Shown here piece after piece: positions 10,051-39,862 of a DNA stretch of 64,000 nucleotides. Each line of letters starts with the position of its first letter. The first letter of the stretch is position 1. The notes below the pieces were generated by a model that was given only the letters and a program-made list of their open reading frames with translations, made no database searches and was not told the DNA's origin. The translations under genes were made by a program, and so were the position numbers. The DNA comes from a virus (Duplodnaviria; Caudoviricetes). The stretch spans positions 27,724-91,723 of IMG/VR virus record IMGVR_UViG_3300029288_000007; one strand, given 5' to 3'.

Positions 10051-10614
10051 TCATCTTCCAATGATTTTATCATATATCCCTTTTGCTAATTTCGCATCAT
10101 AAAGGGCATCGTGAAGATTATTTTCATCAAACTCAAGACCAAAATACTTTGCCACAGTACTCTGCTTAAAATTCACAAGCTCGTGGCGGCGGCCAATTAT
10201 ATGTTGCATTGCCAAAACCATTAAATCAATCGGCGGATGCCAAAACCAACTACCGTAATAATCATCGCCATTTTTATGATACCATTGACGCATAACCTCT
10301 GAATCAAATTCCGCTCCAAAATTGATAAAATAAAATTTATCATTTTTATCATACTTGTCGATATATCGCCCCAACAGCGCTTGGAATTTGTCAAAGACTT
10401 CGCCCGGGTCTGGCTTTTCAGCCAATTTCTCAATAGTCAAATCATGCATATGCAAGGCCGCTTCATCAATATCGTCCCCTTTAAAGATATCGCACTCAAA
10501 AAGAAACTCCTCAGAACGTTTACCTACCTCAATGATGCCGCCAAATTGCCAAAGGCCACATTTATGACGATTGACACTTGTTGTTTCTGTGTCCAAAAAT
10601 ATTCTTTTAACCAT
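10051..10614 (-). CDS. DEDDh 3'-5' exonuclease (Pol III epsilon-like)
   Basis: ExoI FLDTETT, ExoII NFGAEFD, ExoIII HDALYD. Confidence 0.9.
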   Translation of the reverse strand: MVKRIFLDTETTSVNRHKCGLWQFGGIIEVGKRSEEFLFECDIFKGDDIDEAALHMHDLTIEKLAEKPDPGEVFDKFQALLGRYIDKYDKNDKFYFINFGAEFDSEVMRQWYHKNGDDYYGSWFWHPPIDLMVLAMQHIIGRRHELVNFKQSTVAKYFGLEFDENNLHDALYDAKLAKGIYDKIIGR

Positions 10615-11023
10615 CGCTCAAATCCTTTCGAACTTTCATTAATAATTTGCCCAAATTATTTTGCCCTTTGCCATTATAAACTCCCCAAAACTCATCGCCC
10701 CAATAGTTCCCTTCTATTAATTCTTGAACTCCAGTTTCCAACAACAGGGCCTTTAAATCCGGGTCAGCAAATTTGAGACGCAACCCTTTTTCCATAACTT
10801 CCAATTTAATTTCTTCCCAGTCATAACGCAAAACAAGGTCTCTCCCGGCGCGTTTTGCCTGTCCGGGCCTCATTTGAGAAATTTCCCTTTTGCGAACGAC
10901 GCTAAATGTCTTTTGCGCTTGATAAAAAGCCTCCACAGACAAATAGGCAATTCCTTCATAAACTATTCTGCAAGGATAAAAATTGCTTAAAAAACGATAA
11001 CTCCCTTGAAATTCCTTTATCAT
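10607..11023 (-). CDS. NADAR family (YbiA/DUF1768) hydrolase
   Basis: FLSNFY, SVEAFYQAQK, LIEGNYWGDEFWG, GQNNLGKLLMKVR. Confidence 0.92.
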   Translation of the reverse strand: MIKEFQGSYRFLSNFYPCRIVYEGIAYLSVEAFYQAQKTFSVVRKREISQMRPGQAKRAGRDLVLRYDWEEIKLEVMEKGLRLKFADPDLKALLLETGVQELIEGNYWGDEFWGVYNGKGQNNLGKLLMKVRKDLSDG

Positions 11024-19734: not shown

Positions 19735-19768
19735 ATTATACTCCCTTTTCCTAATTTCCATCGAAATT
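19735..19768 (-). promoter_or_regulatory. putative phage promoter (GGAGTATAAT family)
   Basis: AATTTCGA...GGGAGTATAAT. Confidence 0.62.
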
Positions 19769-20678
19769 AAGTGACGCTGTAAAAACAATCTTTTGTCAGC
19801 CCGGCCTTGCCAATATACATGTATGAATCCTGAAAGTTTTTAATTAAACCTGCGGCAAGTTCCATATTTTTTGGGTTCGCCGACAACAATACAGAATTCA
19901 TATATCCCAATATTGCCATTCTTACCCTTTCAGGGTCATCTTTCAAGGCTTTTAATATAACAGCAACTTCCGACCATTTCCGCTGGTCTAAAAGAGCGCG
20001 GCATAAATCTATTACTTCTTTGTGAACAGCAGACCGAATCAAAGAGATTGCGTCTTCATCATTTTCAACACCGCGAACAGTATCAAGAGTCACCAATATT
20101 TCTCTTGGAATTCCCTCGCAACTTTCAACAATTGTTTGCCTCACCGTTGGGGAAACCTTGAACCCTTCTTCGTGACAGACCCATTTGATAAGAAATTTCT
20201 GTTCGTCTTCAGTTAATGGCTGAACCTCATAACATTTACAACGGCTCTTCATTGTTGCAGAAACCTTTTGCAACTCAGTAGTGCAAAGGACAAAATAACA
20301 ATGTTGAGGCGGATTTTCCAAAGTCTTTAAAAGGGAGTCCGATGCCGCGCCGCTCAACCGATGACATTCGTCAATAATATAAATTTTAAATTTGCCTCCC
20401 AAAGGAGAATACTGAGCGGCCTCCTTAATCGCCCGGGCATTATCAATGCCTGTATTATCTGCCGCGTCAATCTCACAAAAATCAATTGGAGCAACATTAA
20501 TGTGATTGCCTATCAATCGAGCAATCGTTGTTTTGCCGCATCCTCTCGGGCCGTAAAACAAAAACGTTCTTGACCTTGGAATTGCCGCCAACAAAGATTC
20601 CTTTAAAACCCGATATCCTATCAATTCGTCAAACGTTTTCGGTCTGTACTTTAAATGAAGCTCAACTCTTTCCGCCAT
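19767..20678 (-). CDS. clamp loader (DnaX gamma/tau-like AAA+)
   Basis: KYRPKTFDE, GPRGCGKTT, IIDECH, LLKTLENPP, SRC. Confidence 0.92.
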   Translation of the reverse strand: MAERVELHLKYRPKTFDELIGYRVLKESLLAAIPRSRTFLFYGPRGCGKTTIARLIGNHINVAPIDFCEIDAADNTGIDNARAIKEAAQYSPLGGKFKIYIIDECHRLSGAASDSLLKTLENPPQHCYFVLCTTELQKVSATMKSRCKCYEVQPLTEDEQKFLIKWVCHEEGFKVSPTVRQTIVESCEGIPREILVTLDTVRGVENDEDAISLIRSAVHKEVIDLCRALLDQRKWSEVAVILKALKDDPERVRMAILGYMNSVLLSANPKNMELAAGLIKNFQDSYMYIGKAGLTKDCFYSVT

Positions 20679-23600
20679 TATTTGAATCCTCCCATTGATT
20701 TTATTTTATCTGCAAAACTTCTTATCCCTTCTTCAAAAAGCATTTTATTTTCTGGACGATGCAATACAGCAGAAGGATGCAATCCCCAACAAACCCAAAT
20801 GCCTTTGTTTTCAATCCACTCCATTGAACCAGACAATTTTGTAATTCCTCCATCAATCCCCTTAAAATATTTTAAGGGAGTATTGCCCAAGGCCAAACAC
20901 AACCTCGCATTTGCATTCTTAATCTCTGCATCAAGCCATTTTGAACAAGCTGAAATATGCTCTGCTTTCGGAGTCCTAATATTCCCGGGATAACATTTGC
21001 AAGTATTTGTGACATGGAATTGTCGCCGGGTCAAACCGTATTTAAACAATTCCTTCCATAACAAATCGCCTGCTTTGCCAACAAAACCTTTTCCTTCTTC
21101 ATTTTCGTCCCTCCCCGGAGCTTCTCCAATTATAAAAACATTATAAATTCCGCAAGAGGGCAAAACCGGCTGTTTTGCTTCTGTTCTTAATTGACAATCC
21201 TTGCAATATAAATTTTCAGGATTTCTCCACCGCTTTTGAATAAAATAACATTCTTTTTCTTTTTGTTCTTTATTTGTTATTGTAGAAACATCAAAAGAAA
21301 AATATTTTGAAATATCATCTTTTGGAGGAGACCCATCTGCGCCAATTGCTTCCATCAACTTTCCTATTTTCCCTGTTGGTTTTGCTTTGCCTAAATCAAA
21401 AAAAGCATCAGCGGCAGGTTGCTTATATTTCGAACAGTCTTCCGCCGTTTTTTCGCCAATCCCCTTTACTTCAATAAAAGGAACATAAATATTCCCGTCT
21501 TTAACAGTCCATACTTTCGCGTCTGACACGCCAATCCGGGGCAAAACAACATTCAATCCAACTCTTTGGGCCTCTTTAACAATTTCTTCTTTTTTTTCTG
21601 CTGCAACAAACGTCAAATTGGCACATAAAAATTCAGCCGGGAAATATAATTTCAGCCAAGCGCACCAATATGAAATCATTGCGTATTCAACAGAATGAGA
21701 TTTATTAAAAGAATACCTAGCATGATTCTGAAGCGCCTCCCAAAACTCATCTGCTTCTTCCTTGGAAAACGTTTTGCTCTTTAAACAACCTTCAACAAAG
21801 GCATCCTTGTATGGTTTAAATTCCTTCGCGTCCCTTTTCTTCCCTATGATTTTTCTAATTTTATCGGCGGTGGAATAAGGCAAACCGGCGACAAGATTTA
21901 TAACCTGCATTACCTGTTCCTGATAAACTATAATCCCAAAGGTGTCTTTTGTTATTTCTTCATAAATGGGGTGCTTCTTTTTCCATTTAGTCCCATGCTT
22001 GCGCTTTATAAAATCGGCCGTCATTCCGCTGTCATAAGGGCCAGGCCTTACCAAAGCGACAACGTCCCCCATAGATTCAAAACTTTCAATTCCAATTTGT
22101 TTGACCAATTTTGTTGTTGCCCAAGTATTAAATTGGAAAACGCCAACCGTTTCTCCTCTTGATAACATTTCAAAAACTTGTTTATTATTCAAATCAATAG
22201 ACTCAAAACAAATTTCCTTATTGTGATTCTTTTTAATTAATCGTTTGGCCTCATTCAATATCGACAAAGTGCTCAATCCAAGGATATCCAATTTCATCAA
22301 ACCCATATATTCAGCATCGTCCTTACTCCAATTAACAACTTCTTGGTCCGATCGCACAGCAAGATTTCCCCTTGTCCCTTGAGTCAAATCCTCTGCGGAA
22401 ACAATAAGCGCGGCGGCATGTTGACTACAACCGCGAATTTGACCTTCCAGTCTTATTGCATAATCAACAACAGAAGGGTATTTTTTCGAAAAGGCCGCGC
22501 CTTCCTTTGTTTCCTTGGCAGCCTGCTCAACAGAATTGTTTTCATTATCTTCATCAAATATGGCTTTTGCAAATTCATCCACATCTTTATAAGGAACATC
22601 GAAAACTCTTGAAACGTCCCGTATCACCGCCCGGCCCTTCATTTTCATAAAAGTAGAAACTGAAGCAATATTGTTCTTGCCGTATAATTCTTCCAAGTGT
22701 TGCCTTATCAACGGACGCTTAACATCTTCAAAGTCAATATCCACATCAGGATAATCAATGCGGTTTTCATCAATAAAACGCGAAAAAAGGAGATTATATT
22801 TAATTGGGTCAACATTTGTTATCCCTATAAGATAAGCTATCAAGCTGCCGCCAACAGAACCTCGGCCCGGGCCGGTCATAATATCGTTCTTTTTGCACCA
22901 CTGGATAAGCTCATGAACCAATAAAAAATAACGAACAAATTTCTTATTGCAAATCAATTCAAACTCTTCCTTGCAACGGTCATAATATTGACCTGACAAC
23001 GGCCCGCAAAATATTTTTTTGTAGCCATCTTCAAAAAGAAATTCCAAATGAGCTTCTTCTGCAACAGAAGAATCCAGTCCTGATATTTTAGGAAGCCAAA
23101 CATCCTTTCTTTTAATTTCAAAAGAAGAACACTTTTCCGCAACTTCCATTGTATTCCTCAATGCCATTAACCGGGCCGCTTTTGTTAATTGCCCCTGCTC
23201 CAAAAAGGCTTGAGCCATTTCTTCCTCTGAACGCAGATGCAAACCGCCAATTTCAAATTTGAATCGGTCTTTCTCGTTCCATTTTGCCTTGGTTTGTATT
23301 GCTAAAAGAACCTCATGTAAATTAGCATCTTCTGATTTAATATAATGACAATCGTTTGTGGCAACTAAAGGAAAATCAAATTCGTCTTTCCAATCAAGAC
23401 AAATTTTATTAATAATTTTTTGTTGCTCATAATCATGAGGCATTATTTCCAAATAAAAGTCATCTGGATTTTTCTGATTCAATTGGATTAAAAAATCCCG
23501 GCCATTTTGCAAGGCCAAAGGACTTTTCGAACACCCAGTCAAAAAAACTAATCCTTCAGAAAATTCAAGGATGGTTTTGAAATCGGTTCTCGGCCTGTAA

Positions 23601-23932
23601 TAAAAACCTTGTAAATTTGCCCTTGTCAATATTCTACAAAGATTTTGAAAACCAATATCATTTTTTATCAAGGCCGTCATATGGAAACGACGCTCAATCT
23701 TATCTTTGATTAAGCAATCCGGGACAACATAAAGCTCGCAACCAAAAACTGGTTTAATGCCCGCTTTCTTCGCCGCAGATTGAAAATCTAAAAAGCCATC
23801 TATATTTCCATGATTCGTAAGCGCCAAATGAGATTGTCCCAACTCTTTTGCGCGCTTTAAATAATCTTCTGCCTTACCAAAACCATCAAGAATAGAAAAC
23901 TCATTATGAACGTGAAGATGACAAATCATCAA
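20678..23932 (-). CDS. dnaE: DNA polymerase III alpha (DnaE-type) with C-terminal family-4 uracil-DNA glycosylase domain
   Basis: PHP HLHVH, GRGS, PDVDID, KLDILGL, YSFNKSH; then CKDC, GEAPG, FVGKAG, TNTCKC, HPS. Confidence 0.92.
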   Translation of the reverse strand: MMICHLHVHNEFSILDGFGKAEDYLKRAKELGQSHLALTNHGNIDGFLDFQSAAKKAGIKPVFGCELYVVPDCLIKDKIERRFHMTALIKNDIGFQNLCRILTRANLQGFYYRPRTDFKTILEFSEGLVFLTGCSKSPLALQNGRDFLIQLNQKNPDDFYLEIMPHDYEQQKIINKICLDWKDEFDFPLVATNDCHYIKSEDANLHEVLLAIQTKAKWNEKDRFKFEIGGLHLRSEEEMAQAFLEQGQLTKAARLMALRNTMEVAEKCSSFEIKRKDVWLPKISGLDSSVAEEAHLEFLFEDGYKKIFCGPLSGQYYDRCKEEFELICNKKFVRYFLLVHELIQWCKKNDIMTGPGRGSVGGSLIAYLIGITNVDPIKYNLLFSRFIDENRIDYPDVDIDFEDVKRPLIRQHLEELYGKNNIASVSTFMKMKGRAVIRDVSRVFDVPYKDVDEFAKAIFDEDNENNSVEQAAKETKEGAAFSKKYPSVVDYAIRLEGQIRGCSQHAAALIVSAEDLTQGTRGNLAVRSDQEVVNWSKDDAEYMGLMKLDILGLSTLSILNEAKRLIKKNHNKEICFESIDLNNKQVFEMLSRGETVGVFQFNTWATTKLVKQIGIESFESMGDVVALVRPGPYDSGMTADFIKRKHGTKWKKKHPIYEEITKDTFGIIVYQEQVMQVINLVAGLPYSTADKIRKIIGKKRDAKEFKPYKDAFVEGCLKSKTFSKEEADEFWEALQNHARYSFNKSHSVEYAMISYWCAWLKLYFPAEFLCANLTFVAAEKKEEIVKEAQRVGLNVVLPRIGVSDAKVWTVKDGNIYVPFIEVKGIGEKTAEDCSKYKQPAADAFFDLGKAKPTGKIGKLMEAIGADGSPPKDDISKYFSFDVSTITNKEQKEKECYFIQKRWRNPENLYCKDCQLRTEAKQPVLPSCGIYNVFIIGEAPGRDENEEGKGFVGKAGDLLWKELFKYGLTRRQFHVTNTCKCYPGNIRTPKAEHISACSKWLDAEIKNANARLCLALGNTPLKYFKGIDGGITKLSGSMEWIENKGIWVCWGLHPSAVLHRPENKMLFEEGIRSFADKIKSMGGFK

Positions 23933-23942
23933 GAATCTCCTT

Positions 23943-24986
23943 TTAAACGACCAGGGCTAAAATGCTTTCAAAATCGCCTTCTTTTATTAACAGATAACGA
24001 TTTTCCTTCAAATAAAAATCCCGGCCCAGCGACAACATTCTGTTTAAGAGCTTCGGATTGATTTTTAAAGTAACGTTTTTTGGGAAAGACCATTTGTCGT
24101 CCTTCAAAATTTTCTCTTTTATTTCTCCGTATTGTTTGGCGCCGGTGACCAATAAATTATCTTTGGCATCCAAAGTTAAATCAATATATTCGGATCCCTC
24201 ATTTGAGAATGTCAAAATTGAAGCCATCTCGATAGACTGAGATAACTTCTCCGGGAAAGAATATTTCTCTCCAAGAACAGATGGGTCAACCGAACAAAAC
24301 TCCCTGATTGCCTGGCGAGGGAAATCAATCTTGACTTGCCGCATGCTAAATTGCAACCCTGTCTTTGACTTGAAATGAATCCAGGCTTCTCCAACCGAAA
24401 ATTCATCAACGTCTTCAAACTTTATCAACTCTGTAACCGCGCCGATGGGTAATACTATTTCCTTTTTGAGAGAACGGACTTCCATTGAGTAAAACCCGGC
24501 CCTGAATCTGTCGCTGGCTGCTAATCCATCCCGGGCAACCGAAACGCCGCAAAGAGAAGAATATGCCTTATCTGTTGTGGCAAAGCTGGAAGTAAGGCGC
24601 AAAGCACTGATAAAATTCGCCGGGAGTTTGACCCATTTAATCCCGTCCAAAGCAAGATTATCAACCAAAGCAAGAATGGAAGAACTGTCTGACGAAACCA
24701 TTTTCAAGGTGGTTTTGCCTCCTGACAATTGTAACTTGCCGTCATCCAGCATAATCATCTTGATTTCATCACTTTCAATCCGGGAAACAACTTTGAAAAA
24801 TTCCTGCGCCTTAACCAAACATTTGATTCCTGAATCAAAAGGATAACTGGCCGAAATTTCATTGTTAAACGTTTTGACCCATTTATCATCAAACATAAAA
24901 GAATCAGCTCCTTCAAGAAGGGCATTCTTTTCTTCCACGCCAGGCATAACTTTTCTCAAAGCTTCCAACAATTCAGTTCTCTTCAT
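23943..24986 (-). CDS. beta sliding clamp (DnaN-like)
   Basis: 347 aa, ASDRFR motif, adjacent to DnaE and clamp loader. Confidence 0.78.
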   Translation of the reverse strand: MKRTELLEALRKVMPGVEEKNALLEGADSFMFDDKWVKTFNNEISASYPFDSGIKCLVKAQEFFKVVSRIESDEIKMIMLDDGKLQLSGGKTTLKMVSSDSSSILALVDNLALDGIKWVKLPANFISALRLTSSFATTDKAYSSLCGVSVARDGLAASDRFRAGFYSMEVRSLKKEIVLPIGAVTELIKFEDVDEFSVGEAWIHFKSKTGLQFSMRQVKIDFPRQAIREFCSVDPSVLGEKYSFPEKLSQSIEMASILTFSNEGSEYIDLTLDAKDNLLVTGAKQYGEIKEKILKDDKWSFPKNVTLKINPKLLNRMLSLGRDFYLKENRYLLIKEGDFESILALVV

Positions 24987-25014: not shown

Positions 25015-26475
25015 TTATTTTATAACTTCCCCAACAAATTTCTTAGAAAAATTCTTATCCCAATCCCGGTATTCATAAACAACATCTTGATTTTGGTCAA
25101 CCCCAACCGGGTGCATCACGCCGGCAAAATAAATATAAGGACTCCGAGGATGATATGGGTCATTCCACTTGTTGCGCATAGCATCGCCAAAGGTAAAATA
25201 CTTGCGGACTCTTTTGGAATGCCAACCGCCACAATTGTACATTTCGACCGCCTTAACCTTATGGGCCCATTCTGGAGCCCAATCCAAATAATTTACTTGG
25301 CGACGAATGCCTCTGTCAAAATCCCTTTTCATTTCATAAACAACATTTGTCAATTGACGGCGACTCCAATGCCCAAAAATTGGGTCATCTGGCAAAATGC
25401 CGCAGCAACAACCGGTATCGTTGAATTCTTTGAAATGAGGGTCGCTACAAGCAAAAACCATTCCCAGTTTATGAGCATAATCTCTGACTTTCGCGGTCAT
25501 GTCAAATTTGTAATCTCGACTCCCTCGACGACATGCCTCAACAGACTTGCTCATCGCATTCCATTTGTCCCCAAACTTGACGTCCCCCATTGCCTTAAAC
25601 ATATGGTGATACATTATCTTCTGTCGCGTTGTTGGCGCTGATTCCAAAAAGATAAATTCAAAGCTTACTGCTTTTGCCCCGGCGTCAGCCGCCTTGTCCA
25701 ACAACCTTTTCCATCCGTTGTTATAATCGGACAACCCGGGCAAGAAGGGCCGGAAACGCACGCTACAAGGGTGACCAGCCTTTGAATAAGCTTTCATTGC
25801 GGCAAAACGTTCCGTTGCGTTCGGCGCTCCGACATCAACCGATGTCAACAAATCGTCATCTGCAGAAATGATACTAAAAGCGAACCAAAATTTTTCAGGA
25901 GTCAAATGAAACAAATCTCGGTATTGTTTAAGCATCATCGTCCTTGCTCCTTTTGTTCCTACTCGAACAGGAACATTATATTTCTGGAACAAAGGAATTG
26001 CCTTTAACAACCACCCACGATGACTTTCAATTTCGTCCAAAGGATCTCCAAGAGCGCCAAGTTGAACTGGACAACCTTGATTTAACAAAGGATACATTGT
26101 TTTCGCAATGCCTCCAAGTTCGCGATTCAAAAACTTCTCCAAATGGCCAATCTTCCATTCAGAATACAACGTCCCTTTTTCAAACAACTTCCTGATTTTA
26201 TCAGGATTACGGTCAGGCGCTCGCATAAGGTTATTGGCAAAACAATAACTGCAACCGTAACTGCAACCTGAATGGCTGTCAATAGAAATGGGTAATGCGC
26301 AATCCATTGCGTCACTTGTAAAACGCACTCCGTTATAGTCGTCCGGCATTGGCATGTTCAAAATTTCTTCCCGGCGCTCATCAGAGACATAAGGAAGGCA
26401 TACTCCCTTCTCGCACAATTCGGCCATCCTTGAAGGACAACCTTTACAAACATAATGCAATTCTTTATTATTCAT
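25015..26475 (-). CDS. radical SAM enzyme, SPL-like (paralog 3)
   Basis: CSYGCSYC, LGALGDP, GTK, GAPNATERF, RFRPFLPG, C-terminal CCC; extra N-terminal Cys cluster. Confidence 0.88.
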   Translation of the reverse strand: MNNKELHYVCKGCPSRMAELCEKGVCLPYVSDERREEILNMPMPDDYNGVRFTSDAMDCALPISIDSHSGCSYGCSYCFANNLMRAPDRNPDKIRKLFEKGTLYSEWKIGHLEKFLNRELGGIAKTMYPLLNQGCPVQLGALGDPLDEIESHRGWLLKAIPLFQKYNVPVRVGTKGARTMMLKQYRDLFHLTPEKFWFAFSIISADDDLLTSVDVGAPNATERFAAMKAYSKAGHPCSVRFRPFLPGLSDYNNGWKRLLDKAADAGAKAVSFEFIFLESAPTTRQKIMYHHMFKAMGDVKFGDKWNAMSKSVEACRRGSRDYKFDMTAKVRDYAHKLGMVFACSDPHFKEFNDTGCCCGILPDDPIFGHWSRRQLTNVVYEMKRDFDRGIRRQVNYLDWAPEWAHKVKAVEMYNCGGWHSKRVRKYFTFGDAMRNKWNDPYHPRSPYIYFAGVMHPVGVDQNQDVVYEYRDWDKNFSKKFVGEVIK

Positions 26476-26729
26476 TTGTCTGCCTTTCTAATCAATTCCG
26501 CCAGCGCGACAGAATTCATATCTGGATGAGATTTAACATGAGGATTTGACTTTGACAACTTTGATAGAACCAAATCATAATCCTTTTCATCGTCGAAATA
26601 AAAAATCAAAAACTTGCGCAACCCATTATCTGTTTTGCCTTGAATATCAGCAGGAAACGAAAAAAGGCCCGATTGCGCTTTCACATTTTTTTCGCCGTTG
26701 TCTATACCAGAATAATCATCTTTTGCCAT
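26472..26729 (-). CDS. hypothetical protein (QSGLF clamp-binding-like motif)
   Basis: 85 aa, GGAGGAG SD, ATGA-coupled to radical SAM gene. Confidence 0.65.
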   Translation of the reverse strand: MAKDDYSGIDNGEKNVKAQSGLFSFPADIQGKTDNGLRKFLIFYFDDEKDYDLVLSKLSKSNPHVKSHPDMNSVALAELIRKADK

Positions 26730-26745
26730 AACTCCTCCAAATTAT

Positions 26746-27507
26746 TTATTCCCAAGAATAAATTTTATTTATTTTGACTGGATTCAATTTTGTTTTGAAA
26801 CGATATAAATTTTCATCATCCAAACAACCACCGTCGTTGACCAATTTATTCTTATTTAAAATTTCCGGGTCAGTATAAAAAAGAAGTCTCATATATTCGC
26901 TTAAAAATTGCCCGGGTTTACAAAAGCAATATCGGAAATTGACATACATATAGTTCTCATCCCAAATATTCAACCCATAAATATTGCCGTACTGGTCCAA
27001 TAAAACTTTTCCATTCTCGCATTCGTTCAAGTAATTCAAAATAACTTTATCATCATAAATTACAACATCGTCCGGTTTGCCTTCCAACCACTGGCAAAGG
27101 ATATCTGGCAACGCGACAATTAAATTGCCATCGGTCTGTTTAAGATTAATATAACTCATTTTTTTATCAGGATTCCGATTGACAAATTTGCGGGAATTTT
27201 TTCTGAAGGTCTGAAAATCTCCTCCAGATAAATCAGAAAAGCGCTTTGGGTCGTAAATAAAATTATAATCCAAAAACTTTCCTTCCTTGCTCCCAAGACC
27301 GGCCCATGCTCCCGTGGACAATTTAAACATTTCTCCAGTCGCAAAATCAATCAAAGGCAACATCAAAAAGCCATCTCCATCTAAAACGCCAACAAGGCCG
27401 CCTTCTTCAAGATTTTCCCAACCGGCCTTCTCAAAATATTCCTCAGAACACCAGAAATTTGGCTCAATATTAAGCTTTTGGAGAGTCTCAAGATATTTAT
27501 TTCCCAT
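26746..27507 (-). CDS. DUF2156/MprF-C-like GNAT-fold protein (putative aminoacyl-tRNA-dependent transferase)
   Basis: NFIYDPKRFSDLSGGDFQTFRKNSRKF and VNDGGCLDDENLYRFKTKLNP match my recollection of the DUF2156 pattern DYIY..L..L.G.K....RN..N.F / N...DLG..GLR..K..Y.P. Confidence 0.62.
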   Translation of the reverse strand: MGNKYLETLQKLNIEPNFWCSEEYFEKAGWENLEEGGLVGVLDGDGFLMLPLIDFATGEMFKLSTGAWAGLGSKEGKFLDYNFIYDPKRFSDLSGGDFQTFRKNSRKFVNRNPDKKMSYINLKQTDGNLIVALPDILCQWLEGKPDDVVIYDDKVILNYLNECENGKVLLDQYGNIYGLNIWDENYMYVNFRYCFCKPGQFLSEYMRLLFYTDPEILNKNKLVNDGGCLDDENLYRFKTKLNPVKINKIYSWE

Positions 27508-27628: not shown

Positions 27629-27673
27629 TTTTATTTCCTCCATATTTTGATTGAGCCAGATATTGCCCGGCCC

Positions 27674-28384
27674 TTATTGGACAACTTTGAAATCTCCCAT
27701 TTCGTCAAATAAGCACCAACTCAAAATTCCTGTTAGTCCGGTAATCTTTCCCTTCACAATAAAATAATTCATTTCCGGGACAAAAGAAAAGGTCAACTCC
27801 CTGTCATAACTGAAAAGGGCATCAAGGTCAACCGTTCTCAGGCCCATCGGAGAAAACGGAGCCAACTTGTCAACATCAATTAAGTCAAGCCCGGCTTTAT
27901 CCTTTGTAATTTCTATTACTGTTCCGGAAAAAATATCCCTTTGAATTACTTTGAGACCATTATCATAATGTATTTCCACATGGGACAAATCGTCTTGTAG
28001 AAGTCCCATTATTTCTCTGCGCAATGTGAAAATTGACGTCGTTTTCTTCCGACTGTAACGATAATACATCGTGGAGATTGAATCAAAATCTAACGACTTA
28101 TTTGACCCGCATTTCTTTTTACGAACATAGCCATCTGCCGTCGTTTTAAAAACGACAGAACCTCCCTCAACATAAAAATTCGAGGAATCATAATCATTCG
28201 CGTCAAAAACAATTTTTTCCTTGAACTCCGGGCAAACTTTCGGCAACACAAAACTCAACAAAATTGTTTTGTCAAAATTAACAATAAAAATTTCCCTTTC
28301 GTTACAAAGAATTGTATTCTTCATTTTCCCGGCCTGGTCCAACGATGCGGCATATTGAAAAATATTTTCAAGTTCCTTTTCCAT
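27674..28384 (-). CDS. hypothetical alpha/beta protein (possibly clamp-like)
   Basis: 236 aa within the radical SAM cassette. Confidence 0.65.
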   Translation of the reverse strand: MEKELENIFQYAASLDQAGKMKNTILCNEREIFIVNFDKTILLSFVLPKVCPEFKEKIVFDANDYDSSNFYVEGGSVVFKTTADGYVRKKKCGSNKSLDFDSISTMYYRYSRKKTTSIFTLRREIMGLLQDDLSHVEIHYDNGLKVIQRDIFSGTVIEITKDKAGLDLIDVDKLAPFSPMGLRTVDLDALFSYDRELTFSFVPEMNYFIVKGKITGLTGILSWCLFDEMGDFKVVQ

Positions 28385-28613
28385 CTTCCTTCTCCCTTTT
28401 TCTTCTATTTTCTTCCATTTTTTTATTATGACAAGGAATACAAAGATTTCGCCCTTCGCAATCCTCTAATGTTTTTGCTTTTGCGTAAAATTCATTCACT
28501 GGTTTCACTTTCCCGCAAGAACCTTTCCCCGTGCACTCCTTCTGGGCAATGCCGCCCGGGTACAAAATACAATCCAAAGGAGCAGGCTTAATAAAATTCT
28601 TTTTCTCCGTCAT
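28368..28613 (-). CDS. small zinc-finger protein
   Basis: KEC..CGKVKPVNEFY...CIPC. Confidence 0.6.
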   Translation of the reverse strand: MTEKKNFIKPAPLDCILYPGGIAQKECTGKGSCGKVKPVNEFYAKAKTLEDCEGRNLCIPCHNKKMEENRRKREKEDGKGT

Positions 28614-30010
28614 ATCAATTTCTCCAACATTTCCTGACGAAAATCCTTACTGGAATCAAAAGTCCAAAGCAAACCGTCCTTGTCCTGTCCAACCGGGATT
28701 AAACCTGCCGCATGGTCCAAACTGAAAGAAATATCTCCTGACAAATTCCACAACTGTTTAACCTCATTTTTAAATGCAGGAGAAAGAAAACCATTATGGC
28801 TTTCAACGTGCTTTTCAAAATCGCCCCAACTTGTCTTCCGGCCCTCTCCGCCTGCAATAAATCTTATCGCGCTTGTAGTATTACCTTGACAAAATTTCCC
28901 CATGCCAAATAAATCACTTACAGAACAACAAACATTGTCATCGTTAATTGGAACGTTGCCAGCGTCAAAAGTCGAACACTGAATCCCGGCCTGTTGAAAA
29001 TAATCCATATATTTTCCTAACAACAAAGAGCCCAACCACTGGGCCTTGGACATAACTTCGTACATCCGCTCAAAATCATATCCCATCCGGGCAAAATTAT
29101 TTTTCACGCCTGTTCCGGCTGCCGAATAACTATAAGTATCAAATGTCATGTGCTTTATTCCAGCCATGACCATATGGTCAATGTAATCGTCAACCATCCC
29201 TTTCTCATCATTCAAAAAAACCATAAATGGTTCAATCCTGGCAACAACCCGAATACCGCCATCGACTAAATTCTTACAGGCGCGCATGCGTTCTTTAAAT
29301 TTCGGAGCGCCGGGCTCAAGATTTTTCAAAAAAGTTTCGTTCGATGAAATCATTGTAACGTGAACCGCCGCGCCAGCTTTATTGCGGGCAAAAGCCTTGA
29401 CATATTCATCGTCGCCAACCAAATCTGATTTTGTGTTGACCATAACCGGGTAATCATTATCGGCGAGATAATTTAACATTGACAATGCGACTTTATGTTT
29501 TGTTTCTATTGGGCGAACAAAATCCTCAAATCTGATTCCTAATCTTATTGGCATTTCCATAGAAATTGCCTTTGGAACCTCAGCCAGTTCTTTTTTGGAA
29601 CCGCGATACTTAAAAAGAGAGTCAAGTTCCGCCTTAAAAAAATCAGGACTGCAAACCCTCATCCCCATTCCTTTTGTATTATCAAAAAACGAAGAATACA
29701 AACTGGCCCGGGCATAATCAGCAAAACAATACTTACAATGATAAGGACACATCTTTGAATCATAAATATCAATATTCAAAGACATTGGACAAGCCTGAGA
29801 GCGCAGACTAACTTCAATAAAAGATTTCATTTCTTCCAAGTTTAAAAGGCGCTCTTTTTTTAACAAATCCCCTTTCAAAATATCAAATTGAAAATAATTC
29901 GTTTTCCGGCCCTTTTCTTTTACAAGACTTTGCTTTTCCTTTTGTTCTATAAAAACAGAAAGTCTTGGTATCAACTTTGAAACTATTTTGCGCAATTCCC
30001 AATAATTCAT
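28610..30010 (-). CDS. radical SAM enzyme, SPL-like (paralog 2)
   Basis: CPYHCKYC, NTKS, LEPGAPKFKER, RIEPF, C-terminal CC; TAATG coupling gives start 30010. Confidence 0.88.
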   Translation of the reverse strand: MNYWELRKIVSKLIPRLSVFIEQKEKQSLVKEKGRKTNYFQFDILKGDLLKKERLLNLEEMKSFIEVSLRSQACPMSLNIDIYDSKMCPYHCKYCFADYARASLYSSFFDNTKGMGMRVCSPDFFKAELDSLFKYRGSKKELAEVPKAISMEMPIRLGIRFEDFVRPIETKHKVALSMLNYLADNDYPVMVNTKSDLVGDDEYVKAFARNKAGAAVHVTMISSNETFLKNLEPGAPKFKERMRACKNLVDGGIRVVARIEPFMVFLNDEKGMVDDYIDHMVMAGIKHMTFDTYSYSAAGTGVKNNFARMGYDFERMYEVMSKAQWLGSLLLGKYMDYFQQAGIQCSTFDAGNVPINDDNVCCSVSDLFGMGKFCQGNTTSAIRFIAGGEGRKTSWGDFEKHVESHNGFLSPAFKNEVKQLWNLSGDISFSLDHAAGLIPVGQDKDGLLWTFDSSKDFRQEMLEKLI

Positions 30011-30846
30011 TAAGCACCTATATTCCAAAATAAAATCGGTTTTTTAAATCTAATATTATTATACTCCGTTTCCTTATAATCCATTAAAAATTTATATGCC
30101 TTTAAATCGTAATATGGATTGCAAGGGAATGGAGCAAAAAAATCAACCTTTTGAGTGTATTCATAACCCAAATCAACCATCTGGAAAAAATCATCATTTA
30201 AAACCGCGCCTGCCATTCCCAAAATTAAAGATTTCTTTTGTCTGATTTTCTTTGATGGACGACAAAGAACTCCAATCACCTGCGCTTTTGATTTTGTCTT
30301 CAATACTCCTTTTAAAACTCCTGCCGCCATGGTCCCGCTGCCAACACACATTACAATGGTATTAAATTTTTTACATTTACTCAAAGCAAATTCAAGATAA
30401 ACCTCTCTTATTGTTTCTATGAAAGGAAGGCCAAGAGGAAGCATTACTGCGCCCGGGCCGTATTGTTCTCTTAATATATTTTTTGATATGTGATAATTCA
30501 CTTTTGCCATCCCGGCAGGGATATCAATCATCTTCGCGCCAAACTCAATCCACTTTGAACGATGTAAAGTCAAAACCTCATTCGGCGTTTTATAAATAGG
30601 ATTAAAAATAACAGCAGTCATCCCCAATTGCTTTGCCATCCAAGCAACACCCCATCCAGCCATTGAGATACTGGTTTCAGTGTAACCAATTGTTTCCACG
30701 CCTTTTGCCTTTAACGCAAGCAAGCGCGAATATAATCCGCGAACCTTAGCAAAGGGAGGCCCGGGAGGAAAACAGGCTAAATCCTCTCTTTTGACGTAAA
30801 TGTCGCCATACTTCTCAATTGGAGTATTGTTCTGTATCAATTCCAC
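30010..30846 (-). CDS. fold-type II PLP-dependent enzyme (ACC deaminase/D-cysteine desulfhydrase-like)
   Basis: IYVKREDL, AKVRGL (Schiff-base Lys), VGSGTMAAG, PYYDLKA, LFWNIG. Confidence 0.85.
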   Translation of the reverse strand: MELIQNNTPIEKYGDIYVKREDLACFPPGPPFAKVRGLYSRLLALKAKGVETIGYTETSISMAGWGVAWMAKQLGMTAVIFNPIYKTPNEVLTLHRSKWIEFGAKMIDIPAGMAKVNYHISKNILREQYGPGAVMLPLGLPFIETIREVYLEFALSKCKKFNTIVMCVGSGTMAAGVLKGVLKTKSKAQVIGVLCRPSKKIRQKKSLILGMAGAVLNDDFFQMVDLGYEYTQKVDFFAPFPCNPYYDLKAYKFLMDYKETEYNNIRFKKPILFWNIGA

Positions 30847-31882
30847 AATCCTTTAAAGAATAAACTTTTTCGTTTTTGCCTAAAATCGCAGCCAGGCCCT
30901 CATGATAATCTCCAACGCCATCCCAACAAAACTTCATAGTTTCCTCAAAAGAATTCCCCGCCAACAACATTCTTTTAACGGTCATCACATTAAATGTCGT
31001 TGGATTAGGGACATCAATCCCGCAACAAGTATTTGTCTCTTCGCAATAACTTCCTGAATTAACAAAATCCGGGCAGCCCAAAATCACGCCGTTCTGTTTT
31101 GCAATATCAATCAATTTCTGTAAAATTGGCTTCCAGTGTTCATCCTGATTATAATGCCATATTTTTTCAATATCAATCCCAATATTGTGCAACCGCTTAG
31201 CAACAAAATCATTAAAATGAAAATTGTAAGTATTGTAATTTTTTATTCCCCACGACTTCAATCTTTTAACGATATCCTCAAATTGCTTAATGGTATGATA
31301 CCCAGGGATAAAAGGTTCTCCATTAACGGCGACAGAAACTCCCCTTGCCCTCAAATAACACAAAAAATCAATTCTTTCCTGAACAGGGGTTGTTCTGGTG
31401 CGTTCCAAGATTTCCCAATCATTCTCCGCGCCGGGAGAAATTATCGGTTGAACAAAAATCAAATGTTTATTTTCAATAATAAAATCTCTGTGTGGAATCA
31501 AATTCTCGGTGAACATTGTTTGGATTAAAAAAGACCAATTCAAACCAACAAGAATTTCCAAAACCCGGGCTGATACTTTATGCTCAAGTTCTGCTGGTTG
31601 GAATGGGTCTGCCTTATTCCCAAAACGGATTGTTTTCTTCTGTCTCAAAGCCCAAGACAATGGCGACTTCGGCTCTTTGTTTTTTAAACCATTGATTAAC
31701 GTTCTTTCAAAATTCTCAACGTCCAATGGGCGCAAATCTTTCCCCCAAACATGATTTAATCGTCTCAAATAACAATGATGACAATTCGCTTGACAATTCC
31801 AATAACTGTCAAGAGAAAGACTCAAAGGACAATAAAGAGAGTCTCCGCGAATAGTTAAACCATTTTGAAGATTTTTACTCAA
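30815..31882 (-). CDS. radical SAM enzyme, SPL-like (paralog 1)
   Basis: CQANCHHC, GNKADPFQPAE, EPFIPG, GCPD...TCCG; probable TTG start 31882 after GAGGA. Confidence 0.88.
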   Translation of the reverse strand: MSKNLQNGLTIRGDSLYCPLSLSLDSYWNCQANCHHCYLRRLNHVWGKDLRPLDVENFERTLINGLKNKEPKSPLSWALRQKKTIRFGNKADPFQPAELEHKVSARVLEILVGLNWSFLIQTMFTENLIPHRDFIIENKHLIFVQPIISPGAENDWEILERTRTTPVQERIDFLCYLRARGVSVAVNGEPFIPGYHTIKQFEDIVKRLKSWGIKNYNTYNFHFNDFVAKRLHNIGIDIEKIWHYNQDEHWKPILQKLIDIAKQNGVILGCPDFVNSGSYCEETNTCCGIDVPNPTTFNVMTVKRMLLAGNSFEETMKFCWDGVGDYHEGLAAILGKNEKVYSLKDCGIDTEQYSN

Positions 31883-31901
31883 AAAACATTCCTCAACAAA
31901 A

Positions 31902-31939
31902 TTAATGAAGGGCAGCAGGGGCAAACCGCCCTTCATTAA
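31902..31939 (-). terminator. intrinsic terminator/attenuator hairpin
   Basis: 12-bp stem TTAATGAAGGGC/GCCCTTCATTAA followed by U-rich run. Confidence 0.65.
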
Positions 31940-31965
31940 CAAATTTTAAAATTCTGGCCGAAAGA

Positions 31966-32544
31966 TTATTTAATGCAAACTTTTCCGTCGTCCAGACGTA
32001 TGGCGCCGAAACCCTTCAACACAGACAACGCGACATTCGTTGCCCACTTAGATTCCTTCTCATTGGACTTGCCGCCTTCCTTGGCGTAAGCTTCATCTGC
32101 CGCTTTTACAATAGCAGCAACTTCAACGCCGGACGTATTCAACGAAGAAAGAATTGTCTCGCCTGTAACTTCCAGCCGGTTCTTTTTGGCCGGTTTTGGC
32201 GCTTTGGGTTCTTTGGCCGGTTTTGGCGCTTTGGGTTCTTTGGCCGGTTTTGGCGCTTTGGGTTCTTTGGTTGCTTTGGACTTCTCGGGAGTCTTTTCAA
32301 CAACCTCGGCCACGGTGATTTTCTGATAATAAACGGCCACACTCTCCGGCCCTTTCCAGTTCCCCTGGTCGTCGTCCGGGATGGACAACACGCCTTTTAT
32401 AAAATCGTCAACGATTTCCTGTTTGCTTTTCCCGACAGTAACAATCTTGGGAGTCAATAACTCGCAAGCATTGAGGTCTTTAACTGCCGCCGCCAGTTCT
32501 TTGAACTGAATTTTTCCAATTTCAATTGTTTTAACCATCTTCAT
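31966..32544 (-). CDS. histone-H1-like repeat DNA-binding protein
   Basis: (KEPKAPKPA)x3 linker between two small domains; own promoter and terminator. Confidence 0.65.
   Translation of the reverse strand: MKMVKTIEIGKIQFKELAAAVKDLNACELLTPKIVTVGKSKQEIVDDFIKGVLSIPDDDQGNWKGPESVAVYYQKITVAEVVEKTPEKSKATKEPKAPKPAKEPKAPKPAKEPKAPKPAKKNRLEVTGETILSSLNTSGVEVAAIVKAADEAYAKEGGKSNEKESKWATNVALSVLKGFGAIRLDDGKVCIK
32185..32270. repeat. 27-bp coding tandem repeat x3
   Basis: tttggccggttttggcgctttgggttc repeated three times. Confidence 0.9.
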
Positions 32545-32642: not shown

Positions 32643-34166
32643 TTAATCTTTTTTTATCCACTCGTCATCTAAAAACGGTTGACCCAACGCAAGTGATTGT
32701 AATACCATAACTTCTCCTGCAAAACTAAATTCCTCATGACGATGTGCAATAACACTTATTCTAGAAACCCCTTGTTCTTTTTCTTCTGGGGTTTGATTAA
32801 TTCCATATAACAAATCTACATGGGCCAATTTACGAATATCCTCGGCTGTATCTTCCTGCTCTAAACTTTTTTTGCTAATAGATTTCCGCGTACTTTGAAG
32901 CACCGTAGCCACTAAACAATGGCGCTTGGATGCCTGTCCTTTTCCTTTCTTCCAAACATAATCTGCCACGGCCCTTTCTGATAGACCGCTCATTCCGCTC
33001 CCCGGGTTTGATATGTCAAAATAATCATAACAAATTAAATCTGGAACAAAATTTTCTTGAGTCTCAAGTTCATCCAAATCGCGTTCTGCATCATCAAAAG
33101 AAGCGGAAAAAGAAGGGTATGCCATAATCCTCAAATTGTCGCCATAGAGCATTCTGAAATCTTTTACCTTTTTACTGACGGCCCTTGAATCAAATTCTTT
33201 GGTTTGATGTTGTATGGACCACCACGTAGCTGTTTCATAATCAGAGTTTTCATTCGCCCTGCAATATTGACAAGCCTTATAATCCTTAAATCGCTTGAAC
33301 TCCGGAGTTGGCGCTCCCGGCGCTTTAATTGAAACATTACAAGTTCTCTCGTCCTTTTTACAAGTCCCGTCCTGATTCTTTTGACAATCAAAAATCGGAT
33401 ATTTGTGGTCTCCCGTATAAGAGGCCAAGGAAGCCAAACGTTTATACAACCTTTTTGAAATGGCAATTTTATTCATCTCAAAAGAAAAATATGCAACCTT
33501 CAATCCGTTTTCCAACGCCATAATAGCAAGTTCCTGCAACCACCAACTCTTGCCGCGCTTCATTGGCGCCATAAAAGCAATCAACCAATCCCTTTCAAAT
33601 GGACCAGAAAGTTCTCCAAGATTGCCGGACAATTTAAAAAGCCGATTTGTTTCATCTTCAGCAAACACCTGATTAACACTGTTGACATCAAGAGGATTGA
33701 ACCAAGCACTCATATCCTTTGCAACTTTATTAAAATTTCTTAATTCTGCCTCGGCCTGGTCTAATTGTCCTTTAGCAAGCAAACCCTTTATCCTGTCAGA
33801 AAGTAAATCCAAAGCACGCTCTCTAAAATAATCTCTGGAATGGTCTTTTAATAAACCAGAATGGGGGTTTGAAGAATCAAAACTATCTGACAATTCTGAA
33901 AGGAATATTTTAATCAATTCGCTTTCAGCTTCTTTTAATTTTTCCTGCTCAACAAGGAAAATATTTTGGATGTCTTTGCCCGGAGCTTTTTTGTACAATT
34001 TATAATAATCAGAACACCAAGAAAAAACTTGCCGGGCATAATCCATTTTAAAATATTGTTTTTTGGCCATCTTAACTATTTGGCCACAGAAAATATTATC
34101 TGTAATAATGCCTGTTATAATTCTCTTTTCTATTTCCCCTGAAGAAACTCCGCGCCTAATAATCAT
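32643..34166 (-). CDS. DnaB-like (SF4) replicative helicase
   Basis: Walker A APMKRGKS, SFEM, YDYFD, TVLQS, AEDIRK; Cys-rich insertion. Confidence 0.85.
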   Translation of the reverse strand: MIIRRGVSSGEIEKRIITGIITDNIFCGQIVKMAKKQYFKMDYARQVFSWCSDYYKLYKKAPGKDIQNIFLVEQEKLKEAESELIKIFLSELSDSFDSSNPHSGLLKDHSRDYFRERALDLLSDRIKGLLAKGQLDQAEAELRNFNKVAKDMSAWFNPLDVNSVNQVFAEDETNRLFKLSGNLGELSGPFERDWLIAFMAPMKRGKSWWLQELAIMALENGLKVAYFSFEMNKIAISKRLYKRLASLASYTGDHKYPIFDCQKNQDGTCKKDERTCNVSIKAPGAPTPEFKRFKDYKACQYCRANENSDYETATWWSIQHQTKEFDSRAVSKKVKDFRMLYGDNLRIMAYPSFSASFDDAERDLDELETQENFVPDLICYDYFDISNPGSGMSGLSERAVADYVWKKGKGQASKRHCLVATVLQSTRKSISKKSLEQEDTAEDIRKLAHVDLLYGINQTPEEKEQGVSRISVIAHRHEEFSFAGEVMVLQSLALGQPFLDDEWIKKD

Positions 34167-39787: not shown

Positions 39788-39862
39788 CTGGCACGGCAGG
39801 ATTTTAACCTGCGCTCCCATCCCGGTTGGGACAGTGTCCTGACCACATTAAACGACGTGCCA
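39788..39862 (-). ncRNA. tRNA-Gln-like pseudo-tRNA without canonical anticodon loop
   Basis: TGGCACG/CGTGCCA acceptor, G73, D-arm, 7-bp stem with AACC tetraloop, T-arm GCAGG-TTAAAAT-CCTGC. Confidence 0.68.

Follow-up and report, generated by a model that had tools for sequence, protein, structure and literature searches.

A phage-borne DUF2156-type tandem-GNAT protein in a mobile replication-module cassette: a candidate tRNA-dependent enzyme of amino-acid-derived DNA modification

Introduction

What does a phage do with a protein resembling an aminoacyl transferase that is encoded in the midst of its DNA replication genes? This question is raised by a gene at positions 26746-27507 (minus strand) of a stretch of viral DNA of 64,000 nucleotides, here called the window, which covers positions 27,724 to 91,723 of the IMG/VR record IMGVR_UViG_3300029288_000007 (Duplodnaviria; Caudoviricetes). 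The source is an uncultured phage, and its record is complete at 91,723 bp with terminal repeats. From an ATG start the gene encodes a stand-alone DUF2156-type tandem-GNAT protein of 253 amino acids (aa), a putative aminoacyl-tRNA (aa-tRNA)-dependent aminoacyl transferase that is referred to as the transferase in the following. An earlier note, made from the sequence of the window alone, had proposed that it functionally replaces the amino acid:DNA transferase (ADDT). We arrive, with a probability of roughly 50%, at a related reading, namely that it is a tRNA-dependent aminoacyl transferase supplying or tailoring an amino-acid-derived DNA base modification, with DNA as the presumed acceptor.

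Three known systems are important for judging this protein. In DUF2156 enzymes a positively charged helix between the two GNAT halves binds the aa-tRNA, while GNAT I recognizes the acceptor and GNAT II performs the transfer (PMC7334510). In Pseudomonas phage M6 the pathway to 5-(2-aminoethyl)-deoxyuridine (dU) comprises gp51, the ADDT; gp52, a pyridoxal phosphate (PLP) decarboxylase; gp53, a radical S-adenosylmethionine (rSAM) isomerase; and gp54, a 5-hydroxymethyl-dU (5-hmdU) kinase (PMC8989533). Of these, gp52 was shown experimentally to decarboxylate C-alpha-glycinylthymidine in DNA, and gp53 resembles spore photoproduct lyase (SPL) and also acts on DNA (PMC8989533). Charged tRNA as donor of a DNA modification is known for one enzyme, Mom of phage Mu (2023 preprint, 2026 paper; PMC13219725), a GNAT that transfers glycine from Gly-tRNA to the N6 position of adenine in double-stranded DNA (PMC13219725; bioRxiv 10.1101/2023.03.24.534169). 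In full-text searches of the literature, Mom was the sole case of a DNA modification that depends on tRNA; no publication on phage DUF2156 proteins came up, nor one describing the gene cassette reported here.

Fold and Family of the Transferase

The transferase is a real, conserved, stand-alone protein of the DUF2156/MprF-C tandem-GNAT type. Its AlphaFold2 model was built from an alignment of 44 of the 211 homologues (240–300 aa, many on contigs of 55–92 kb) found in a large protein collection, and reaches a mean predicted local distance difference test (pLDDT) of 94.3 and a predicted template modeling score (pTM) of 0.91. In a Foldseek search the best match is 2hqy (E 2e-8), which is a stand-alone DUF2156 protein from Bacteroides thetaiotaomicron; MprF synthase domains, the aa-tRNA-dependent peptide synthases Sbb17 and Sba18, and FemX come next. 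This is the comparison with MprF and FemX structures that the earlier note had proposed, and its assumption of a tandem-GNAT fold holds. VIA-align, run against 48,161 chains, superimposes 244 of the 253 residues on 2hqy_B (Z 21.2, root-mean-square deviation (rmsd) 3.0); the tRNA-dependent enzymes follow at Z 13.9–14.9 (MprF), 12.8 (Sbb17) and 11.1–12.4 (FemX/FemA), and tandem acetyl-coenzyme A (CoA) GNATs stand below all of them at Z 8–10.6.

At the level of sequence families, PF09924 (LPG_synthase_C/DUF2156) is the sole Pfam match (E 0.0063, 16.1 bits, residues 82–144); a Fem family signature is absent from the Pfam search at E ≤ 0.1, and searches of PHROGs and NCBIfam gave no match. Despite the weak score of the single sequence, the DUF2156 signal is not a matter of chance, because 21 of the 44 relatives match PF09924 (E ≤ 0.1, best E 1e-6) and the confident model fits DUF2156 structures over its whole length. 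A family profile searched against the PDB returned a single match, again 2hqy (E 0.0075). Both motif blocks that the earlier note had read as DUF2156-like are present. The first, G..W..FRKN.RKF, lies in the helix between the GNAT halves and aligns with MprF and 2hqy; within this helix (residues 96–111) R102, K103 and N104 are invariant and K107 nearly so among the 44 members, all of which carry a net charge of +3 to +9 there. The second, VNDGG...L..FK.KLNP, is found at the C-terminus with L234, F237, K238 and P243 invariant and matches VN..ED..EGLRK.K..Y.P of stand-alone DUF2156 proteins and GLREYKDKF.P of MprF, as compared by eye with 10 canonical DUF2156/MprF domains from Bacteroidota genomes. 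The alignment contains 29 invariant columns, and the family shows no conserved [RQ]xxGx[GA] CoA loop. From the fold, the basic helix and the missing CoA loop we infer that aa-tRNA is the acyl donor.

No membrane segment was found in the transferase (the maximum Kyte-Doolittle mean over 19 residues is 1.47), in agreement with the earlier note, and a search for fused or longer homologues, which is weak evidence, found none. Cultured phages contain no homologue, and a scan of 185,579 species genomes gave only two contigs of metagenome-assembled genomes (MAGs), both resembling binned phage contigs.

With 2hqy and the MprF synthase domain the transferase shares the whole-length tandem-GNAT fold, the basic helix between the halves and the C-terminal L..FK.K..P motif, and with the stand-alone DUF2156 group also the absence of the approximately 30-residue MprF insertion. 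It differs from 2hqy and MprF in its low identity (approximately 12–15%), in scoring below the Pfam cut-off, in being approximately 50 residues shorter and in its restriction to phages. Unlike MprF, the 253-aa protein has no N-terminal integral-membrane domain, and its gene is placed in a replisome and DNA modification context rather than beside a flippase. FemX/FemABX, Sbb17, Sba18 and VlmA, which are soluble tRNA-dependent transferases with non-lipid amine or hydroxyl acceptors, have the same superfold (Z 11–13), but they are structurally less similar to the transferase than DUF2156 proteins proper, it has no Fem Pfam match, and their genomic setting is another one.

The Transferase Gene Is Part of a Replication-Module Cassette

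The earlier note had placed the gene among DNA replication genes, and it does lie between replisome genes, in a long operon; all genes of this region are encoded on the minus strand. The features of the region are given here from downstream to upstream with respect to transcription.

19767-20678, minus strand: clamp loader (PF13177)
20678-23932, minus strand: DnaE-type polymerase III alpha subunit (PHP, core and fingers; PF07733, PF17657, PF02811) with a C-terminal uracil-DNA glycosylase (UDG) domain (PF03167)
23943-24986, minus strand: beta sliding clamp, flank (family profile against PDB beta clamps, E 2e-24)
25015-26475, minus strand: third SPL-like rSAM enzyme, 486 aa, a lineage-specific extra (Pfam, PHROGs and NCBIfam family matches)
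26472-26729, minus strand: 85-aa protein without a family match
26746-27507, minus strand: the transferase, 253 aa
27497-27628, minus strand: micro-open reading frame (micro-ORF), 43 aa from an internal Met (a longer reading starts at 27643), MGGKSRK.G..SK.LI
27674-28384, minus strand: second sliding-clamp-fold protein, 236 aa, two domains, PCNA/9-1-1/gp45-like (predicted structure)
28368-28613, minus strand: 81-aa Cys-rich small protein, zinc-ribbon-like, non-core (weak PF24734 and phrog_5558 only)
28610-30028, minus strand: core SPL-like rSAM enzyme, 472 aa, CxxxCxxC, PA0069/Rv2578c type (family matches)
30010-30846, minus strand: PLP enzyme, PALP fold, M6 gp52 homologue (PF00291 E 1e-14, phrog_7093 E 5e-47)
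30815-31942, minus strand: second SPL-like rSAM enzyme, 375 aa (phrog_13321, NF033668)
31966-32544, minus strand: 192-aa Lys-rich protein (Pfam search)
32643-34166, minus strand: DnaB-like helicase, flank beyond the cassette (TIGR00665, TIGR03600, weak; syntenic in 47 of 80 loci)

An IMG/VR scan revealed 108 viral stretches with a relative of the transferase, of which 80 loci were fetched (loci are labeled L with a number). The gene order helicase, (192-aa protein), rSAM, (PLP enzyme), rSAM, PCNA-like protein, transferase, beta clamp, DnaE, clamp loader is constant down to 33% identity, and stops and starts of adjacent cassette genes often overlap. A beta clamp is encoded in 78 of these 80 loci, its start often coupled to the transferase stop as judged from intergenic distances, and the PCNA-like protein lies beside the transferase in 74–75. 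The second rSAM has BLAST homologues in 49, the PLP enzyme is optional (approximately 31 loci) and the 81-aa Cys-rich protein is found in two. All three rSAM enzymes of the window belong to the PA0069/Rv2578c/SPL-like group. The core rSAM has a mean column identity of 52%, and a search in the reverse direction, starting from it, found the transferase in all 71 untruncated loci.

The second clamp-fold protein has no sequence-family match. Its AlphaFold2 model (pLDDT 87.8) matches PCNA in Foldseek (E 4e-8), and VIA-align gives Z 15.1 and rmsd 3.8 over 206 aligned residues; because this model is that of a sliding clamp, the phage has a second clamp-fold protein beside its beta clamp. Its gains and losses always coincide with those of the SPL-like rSAMs, and it may serve as a dedicated platform for DNA-modifying enzymes. 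A complex prediction of the PCNA-like protein with the transferase scored 0.04, which speaks neither for nor against an interaction.

The micro-ORF encodes the Lys/Gly-rich peptide MGGKSRK.G..SK.LI in 75 of 78 transferase-positive loci. It overlaps the transferase start by 11 nucleotides in the window, and an overlap is found in many loci. The three loci without the peptide, L037, L049 and L050, are also devoid of the rSAM and PCNA-like genes. In a second set of 80 loci, anchored on the clamp loader, only L197 encodes the peptide, and L197 is also the only locus there with a transferase. The C-terminal motif GL.L/LFD of the peptide resembles short clamp-binding motifs.

An Accessory Cassette That Moves as a Unit

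The set anchored on the clamp loader (L177-L256) was fetched from at least 367 clamp-loader relatives in IMG/VR. Forty of its loci have at least 7 kb upstream; a homologous beta clamp is present in 37 of these forty, and 39 are without transferase, rSAM and PCNA-like gene. Four sister genomes of at least 90% completeness are devoid of any transferase homologue; one of them is, among the transferase-negative relatives, the closest to the window. On a clamp-loader tree of 84 rows, which is a single gene tree and need not equal the genome history, transferase presence requires 18 changes, at least nine of them forced by well-supported branches. In nine phylogenetically independent pairs the rSAM and PCNA-like genes change in the same direction as the transferase 8.7–8.9 times and in no case against it (sign test, p approximately 0.004). 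The cassette between helicase and beta clamp is accessory and mobile, and it moves as a unit. That the transferase is a core replisome subunit was rejected, as close sister phages exist without the gene.

The same place is occupied differently in some relatives. L037 has a TET-associated glycosyltransferase upstream of the transferase (L037:4710-5855, plus strand; PF20691 E 5e-40), which hints at a different base modification in this phage. Others encode two N6/N4 DNA methylases (L049:6301-7698, plus strand), a Dam-type methylase (L078:2375-3151, plus strand), ThyX (L018:3641-4396, plus strand) or a DUF5591 domain (L183:4469-5380, plus strand). With such genes at the same place, this region of the replication module looks like a variable DNA modification slot.

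Relationship to M6 Hypermodification and to Mom

The PLP and rSAM neighbors of the transferase are related to enzymes that act on DNA in M6. The PLP enzyme matches M6 gp52 in tblastn with 37% identity over 99% coverage (E 8e-41). Matches to it occur in 66 cultured phages and in every case span at least 80% of its length; the records listed are M6-like Pseudomonas phages and their relatives, and in annotated ones the PLP gene adjoins that of the ADDT. For the core rSAM, hhalign gives a probability of 90.8% (E 1e-6) against M6 gp53, and the rSAMs of the window match gp53 in BLASTP with E 1e-7 (the 375-aa enzyme) and 0.002; among cultured phages the core rSAM has one weak match only. With the M6 pathway the cassette has in common the gp52 homologue, gp53-related SPL-like rSAMs and a set of tailoring genes that varies in combination from one relative to the next. 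In contrast to M6, the phage lacks a dUMP hydroxymethylase, a kinase and an ADDT, and has the DUF2156 transferase, the PCNA-like clamp, the micro-peptide and two to three rSAMs instead. A search of the complete genome found no ThyA-like hydroxymethylase (PF00303), no 5-hmdU DNA kinase (PF18748) and no ADDT (PF18724), and M6 gp51 and gp54 as queries gave no match. With these entry enzymes absent, no protein of the cassette other than the DUF2156-type one is a candidate for the step that delivers an amino acid.

To our knowledge, amino-acid-derived hypermodifications are known only downstream of 5-hmdU. In the ADDT reaction an amine displaces phosphate on 5-phosphomethyl-dU (5-PmdU). The same chemistry is impossible for the transferase, because there is no 5-hmdU route in this phage and a DUF2156 enzyme would form a carboxyl-linked ester or amide. 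The proposal of the earlier note that the transferase replaces the ADDT can therefore be kept as regards the delivering step, for which it is the only candidate where the ADDT itself is missing, and has to be given up as regards the reaction.

The closest precedent in working principle is Mom, whose aminoacyl transfer from tRNA to DNA is what we propose for the transferase. However, Mom is a dimer of single GNATs with a helix-turn-helix (HTH)-like insertion and works alone, whereas the model of the transferase is a tandem GNAT without such an insertion and its gene lies beside rSAM, PLP and clamp genes. A Mom gene is absent from the complete genome, and homology of the transferase to Mu Mom was rejected (hhalign probability 0.2%).

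Also rejected was a tRNA-like RNA of the phage as dedicated carrier, for it is not a conserved partner among transferase-bearing relatives. The window contains one tRNA-like gene (39788-39862, minus strand; RF00005, 36.1 bits) with an odd T-loop and anticodon arm and without an ARAGORN call; two complete transferase-bearing relatives differ in this respect, with an ordinary tRNA in one and no tRNA match in the other.

A Proposed Route to an Amino-Acid-Derived Base Modification

In the mechanism that we propose, the transferase would take an aminoacyl group from a host aa-tRNA and put it on the phage's own DNA, either directly on a base, as Mom does, or on a group pre-installed by neighboring enzymes. 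The PCNA-like second clamp would hold the enzymes on the DNA, and the M6 gp52-type PLP enzyme, where present, would trim the amino acid after its attachment; the cassette also has one to three SPL-like rSAMs and the 43-aa Lys-rich peptide. The pathway would end in a DNA base hypermodified with an amino-acid-derived group, without passing through 5-hmdU, and this modification would shield the DNA from host nucleases. We infer the DNA acceptor, the order of these steps and the anti-restriction role, like the tRNA donor, from the observed fold and motifs, the gene set with its co-inheritance and the homology to M6 gp52 and gp53.

Several points weigh against this proposal. Beyond the fold, the evidence for it is association. 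The Pfam score of 16.1 bits leaves the transferase outside formal membership of PF09924, the curated cut-off of which is 27.5 bits, and hhalign to canonical MprF and stand-alone domains reaches a probability of 58% over the helix region only. The protein is acidic, with an isoelectric point (pI) of 4.8 and a family median of 5.6, and has no recognizable DNA-binding insertion like that of Mom. Adjacent genes are also gained and lost jointly for purely physical reasons. The lineages L037 and L049/L050 have an intact transferase (26 of the 29 invariant residues) and no rSAM, PCNA-like or peptide gene; the record of L049 is a complete genome. The function of the transferase is therefore not strictly dependent on these genes. 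Its survival alone would fit a scheme in which the transferase installs a group and tailoring is optional, comparable to M6 and PaMx11, and would equally allow an independent role. Finally, a gp52-type decarboxylase needs a free carboxylate, and a carboxyl-linked aminoacyl adduct offers none, so the transferase may act late, on an amine made by other enzymes.

A more specific version is tentative, and we would sooner expect it to fail than to hold: the tandem-GNAT DUF2156 enzyme might use host aa-tRNA to aminoacylate directly a canonical base of phage DNA under replication, and clamp-tethered rSAMs, with or without the PLP enzyme, might remodel the adduct, which would make a 5-hmdU-independent, kinase-free pathway and a second class of tRNA-to-DNA transferase after Mom, structurally unrelated to it. 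What would be new in the main proposal, to which we give even odds, is the combination of tRNA-dependent DNA hypermodification with M6-type tailoring, where the transferase has another fold, a clamp is dedicated to the task and 5-hmdU does not serve as the entry.

Over 100 uncultured phages carry the cassette, without the known entry enzymes; they come from landfill, wastewater and sediment-type samples. If the proposal is true, it would reveal a modified base and radical reactions on DNA that are both new, and a new function for the large DUF2156 family, stand-alone members of which, such as 2hqy, are still uncharacterized; such an enzyme may also be of use in enzymatic DNA labeling.

Alternative Explanations

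The best-surviving alternative, which we regard as unlikely, is that the acceptor is the 43-aa MGGKSRK peptide or another protein. An amino acid would be added to a Lys, Ser or N-terminal residue, as by FemX, leucyl/phenylalanyl (L/F)-transferase or in scaffold-peptide pathways of the 'pearlin' type, and the appended residue would be the substrate of the rSAM and PLP enzymes. The near-constant presence of the micro-ORF, its frequent overlap with the transferase start and an N-terminus rich in Lys, Ser and Gly favor this, as does W68 in the acceptor-side GNAT half, which is otherwise invariant and is changed in both peptide-less lineages. Enzymes of the rSAM and PLP types are moreover common in peptide tailoring. 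However, the transferase stays intact without the peptide in L037 and L049, and where the genes are spread apart (L010, L015-L020, L030-L036) the peptide gene remains attached to the end of the PCNA-like gene, away from the transferase gene. The rSAMs here are SPL- and M6 gp53-like and the PLP enzyme is M6 gp52-like, both of which act on DNA in M6, and a protein of sliding-clamp fold belongs to the gene set.

That the acceptor is a host lipid or small molecule, as phosphatidylglycerol is for MprF, a sterol for the soluble ErgS and metabolites for VlmA and Sbb17, with a role in host takeover or superinfection unrelated to the DNA enzymes, appears quite unlikely to us. The earlier note had considered a lipid substrate unlikely, in part for want of a membrane domain in the protein, an argument that is weak, as a soluble freestanding DUF2156 enzyme modifies lipids by aminoacylating sterols (PMC8913301). 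All characterized DUF2156 enzymes act on lipid or small-molecule acceptors (PMC7334510, PMC8913301, PDB titles), and the transferase is acidic and occurs also without rSAM, clamp and peptide genes. These arguments are opposed by its fixed place between two clamp genes in a replisome operon across 80 loci, by the repeated joint gain and loss with SPL-like rSAMs and the PCNA-like protein, and by the restriction of the family to viral contigs, as the two MAG contigs found in the 185,579 species genomes are phage-like.

Very improbable is a protein that does not use aa-tRNA, whether a tandem GNAT working with acyl-CoA or a non-catalytic accessory of the replisome, structural or regulatory, in which the fold is merely kept. 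In favor of this, the Pfam score lies under the cut-off, tandem acetyl-CoA GNATs appear in the fold lists at Z 8–10.6 and the co-substrate of a GNAT is not predictable from structure alone, as the Mom paper states (PMC13219725). Against it, tRNA-dependent enzymes rank clearly higher (Z 21, 15, 13 and 12), conservation extends to the basic inter-domain helix and the FK.K..P motif and not to a CoA pyrophosphate loop, the 29 invariant columns among 44 diverse members speak for a catalytic role, and sister phages replicate without the transferase.

Further Observations on Neighboring Genes

The third rSAM and the 85-aa protein travel together and occur, besides the window, only in its closest relatives L001 and L009; these are also the only loci in which this rSAM is the best match. 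The pair may provide a further tailoring step.

The C-terminal UDG-superfamily domain of DnaE is well supported in the window (PF03167, E 1.5e-28), and in most relatives the polymerase is apparently split or without this domain. In the early/replication region, a NADAR-domain protein (10607-11023, minus strand; PF08719, E 3e-25) and an RNase T/DEDD exonuclease (10051-10614, minus strand) adjoin each other. NADAR domains in some systems undo the ADP-ribosylation of DNA bases.

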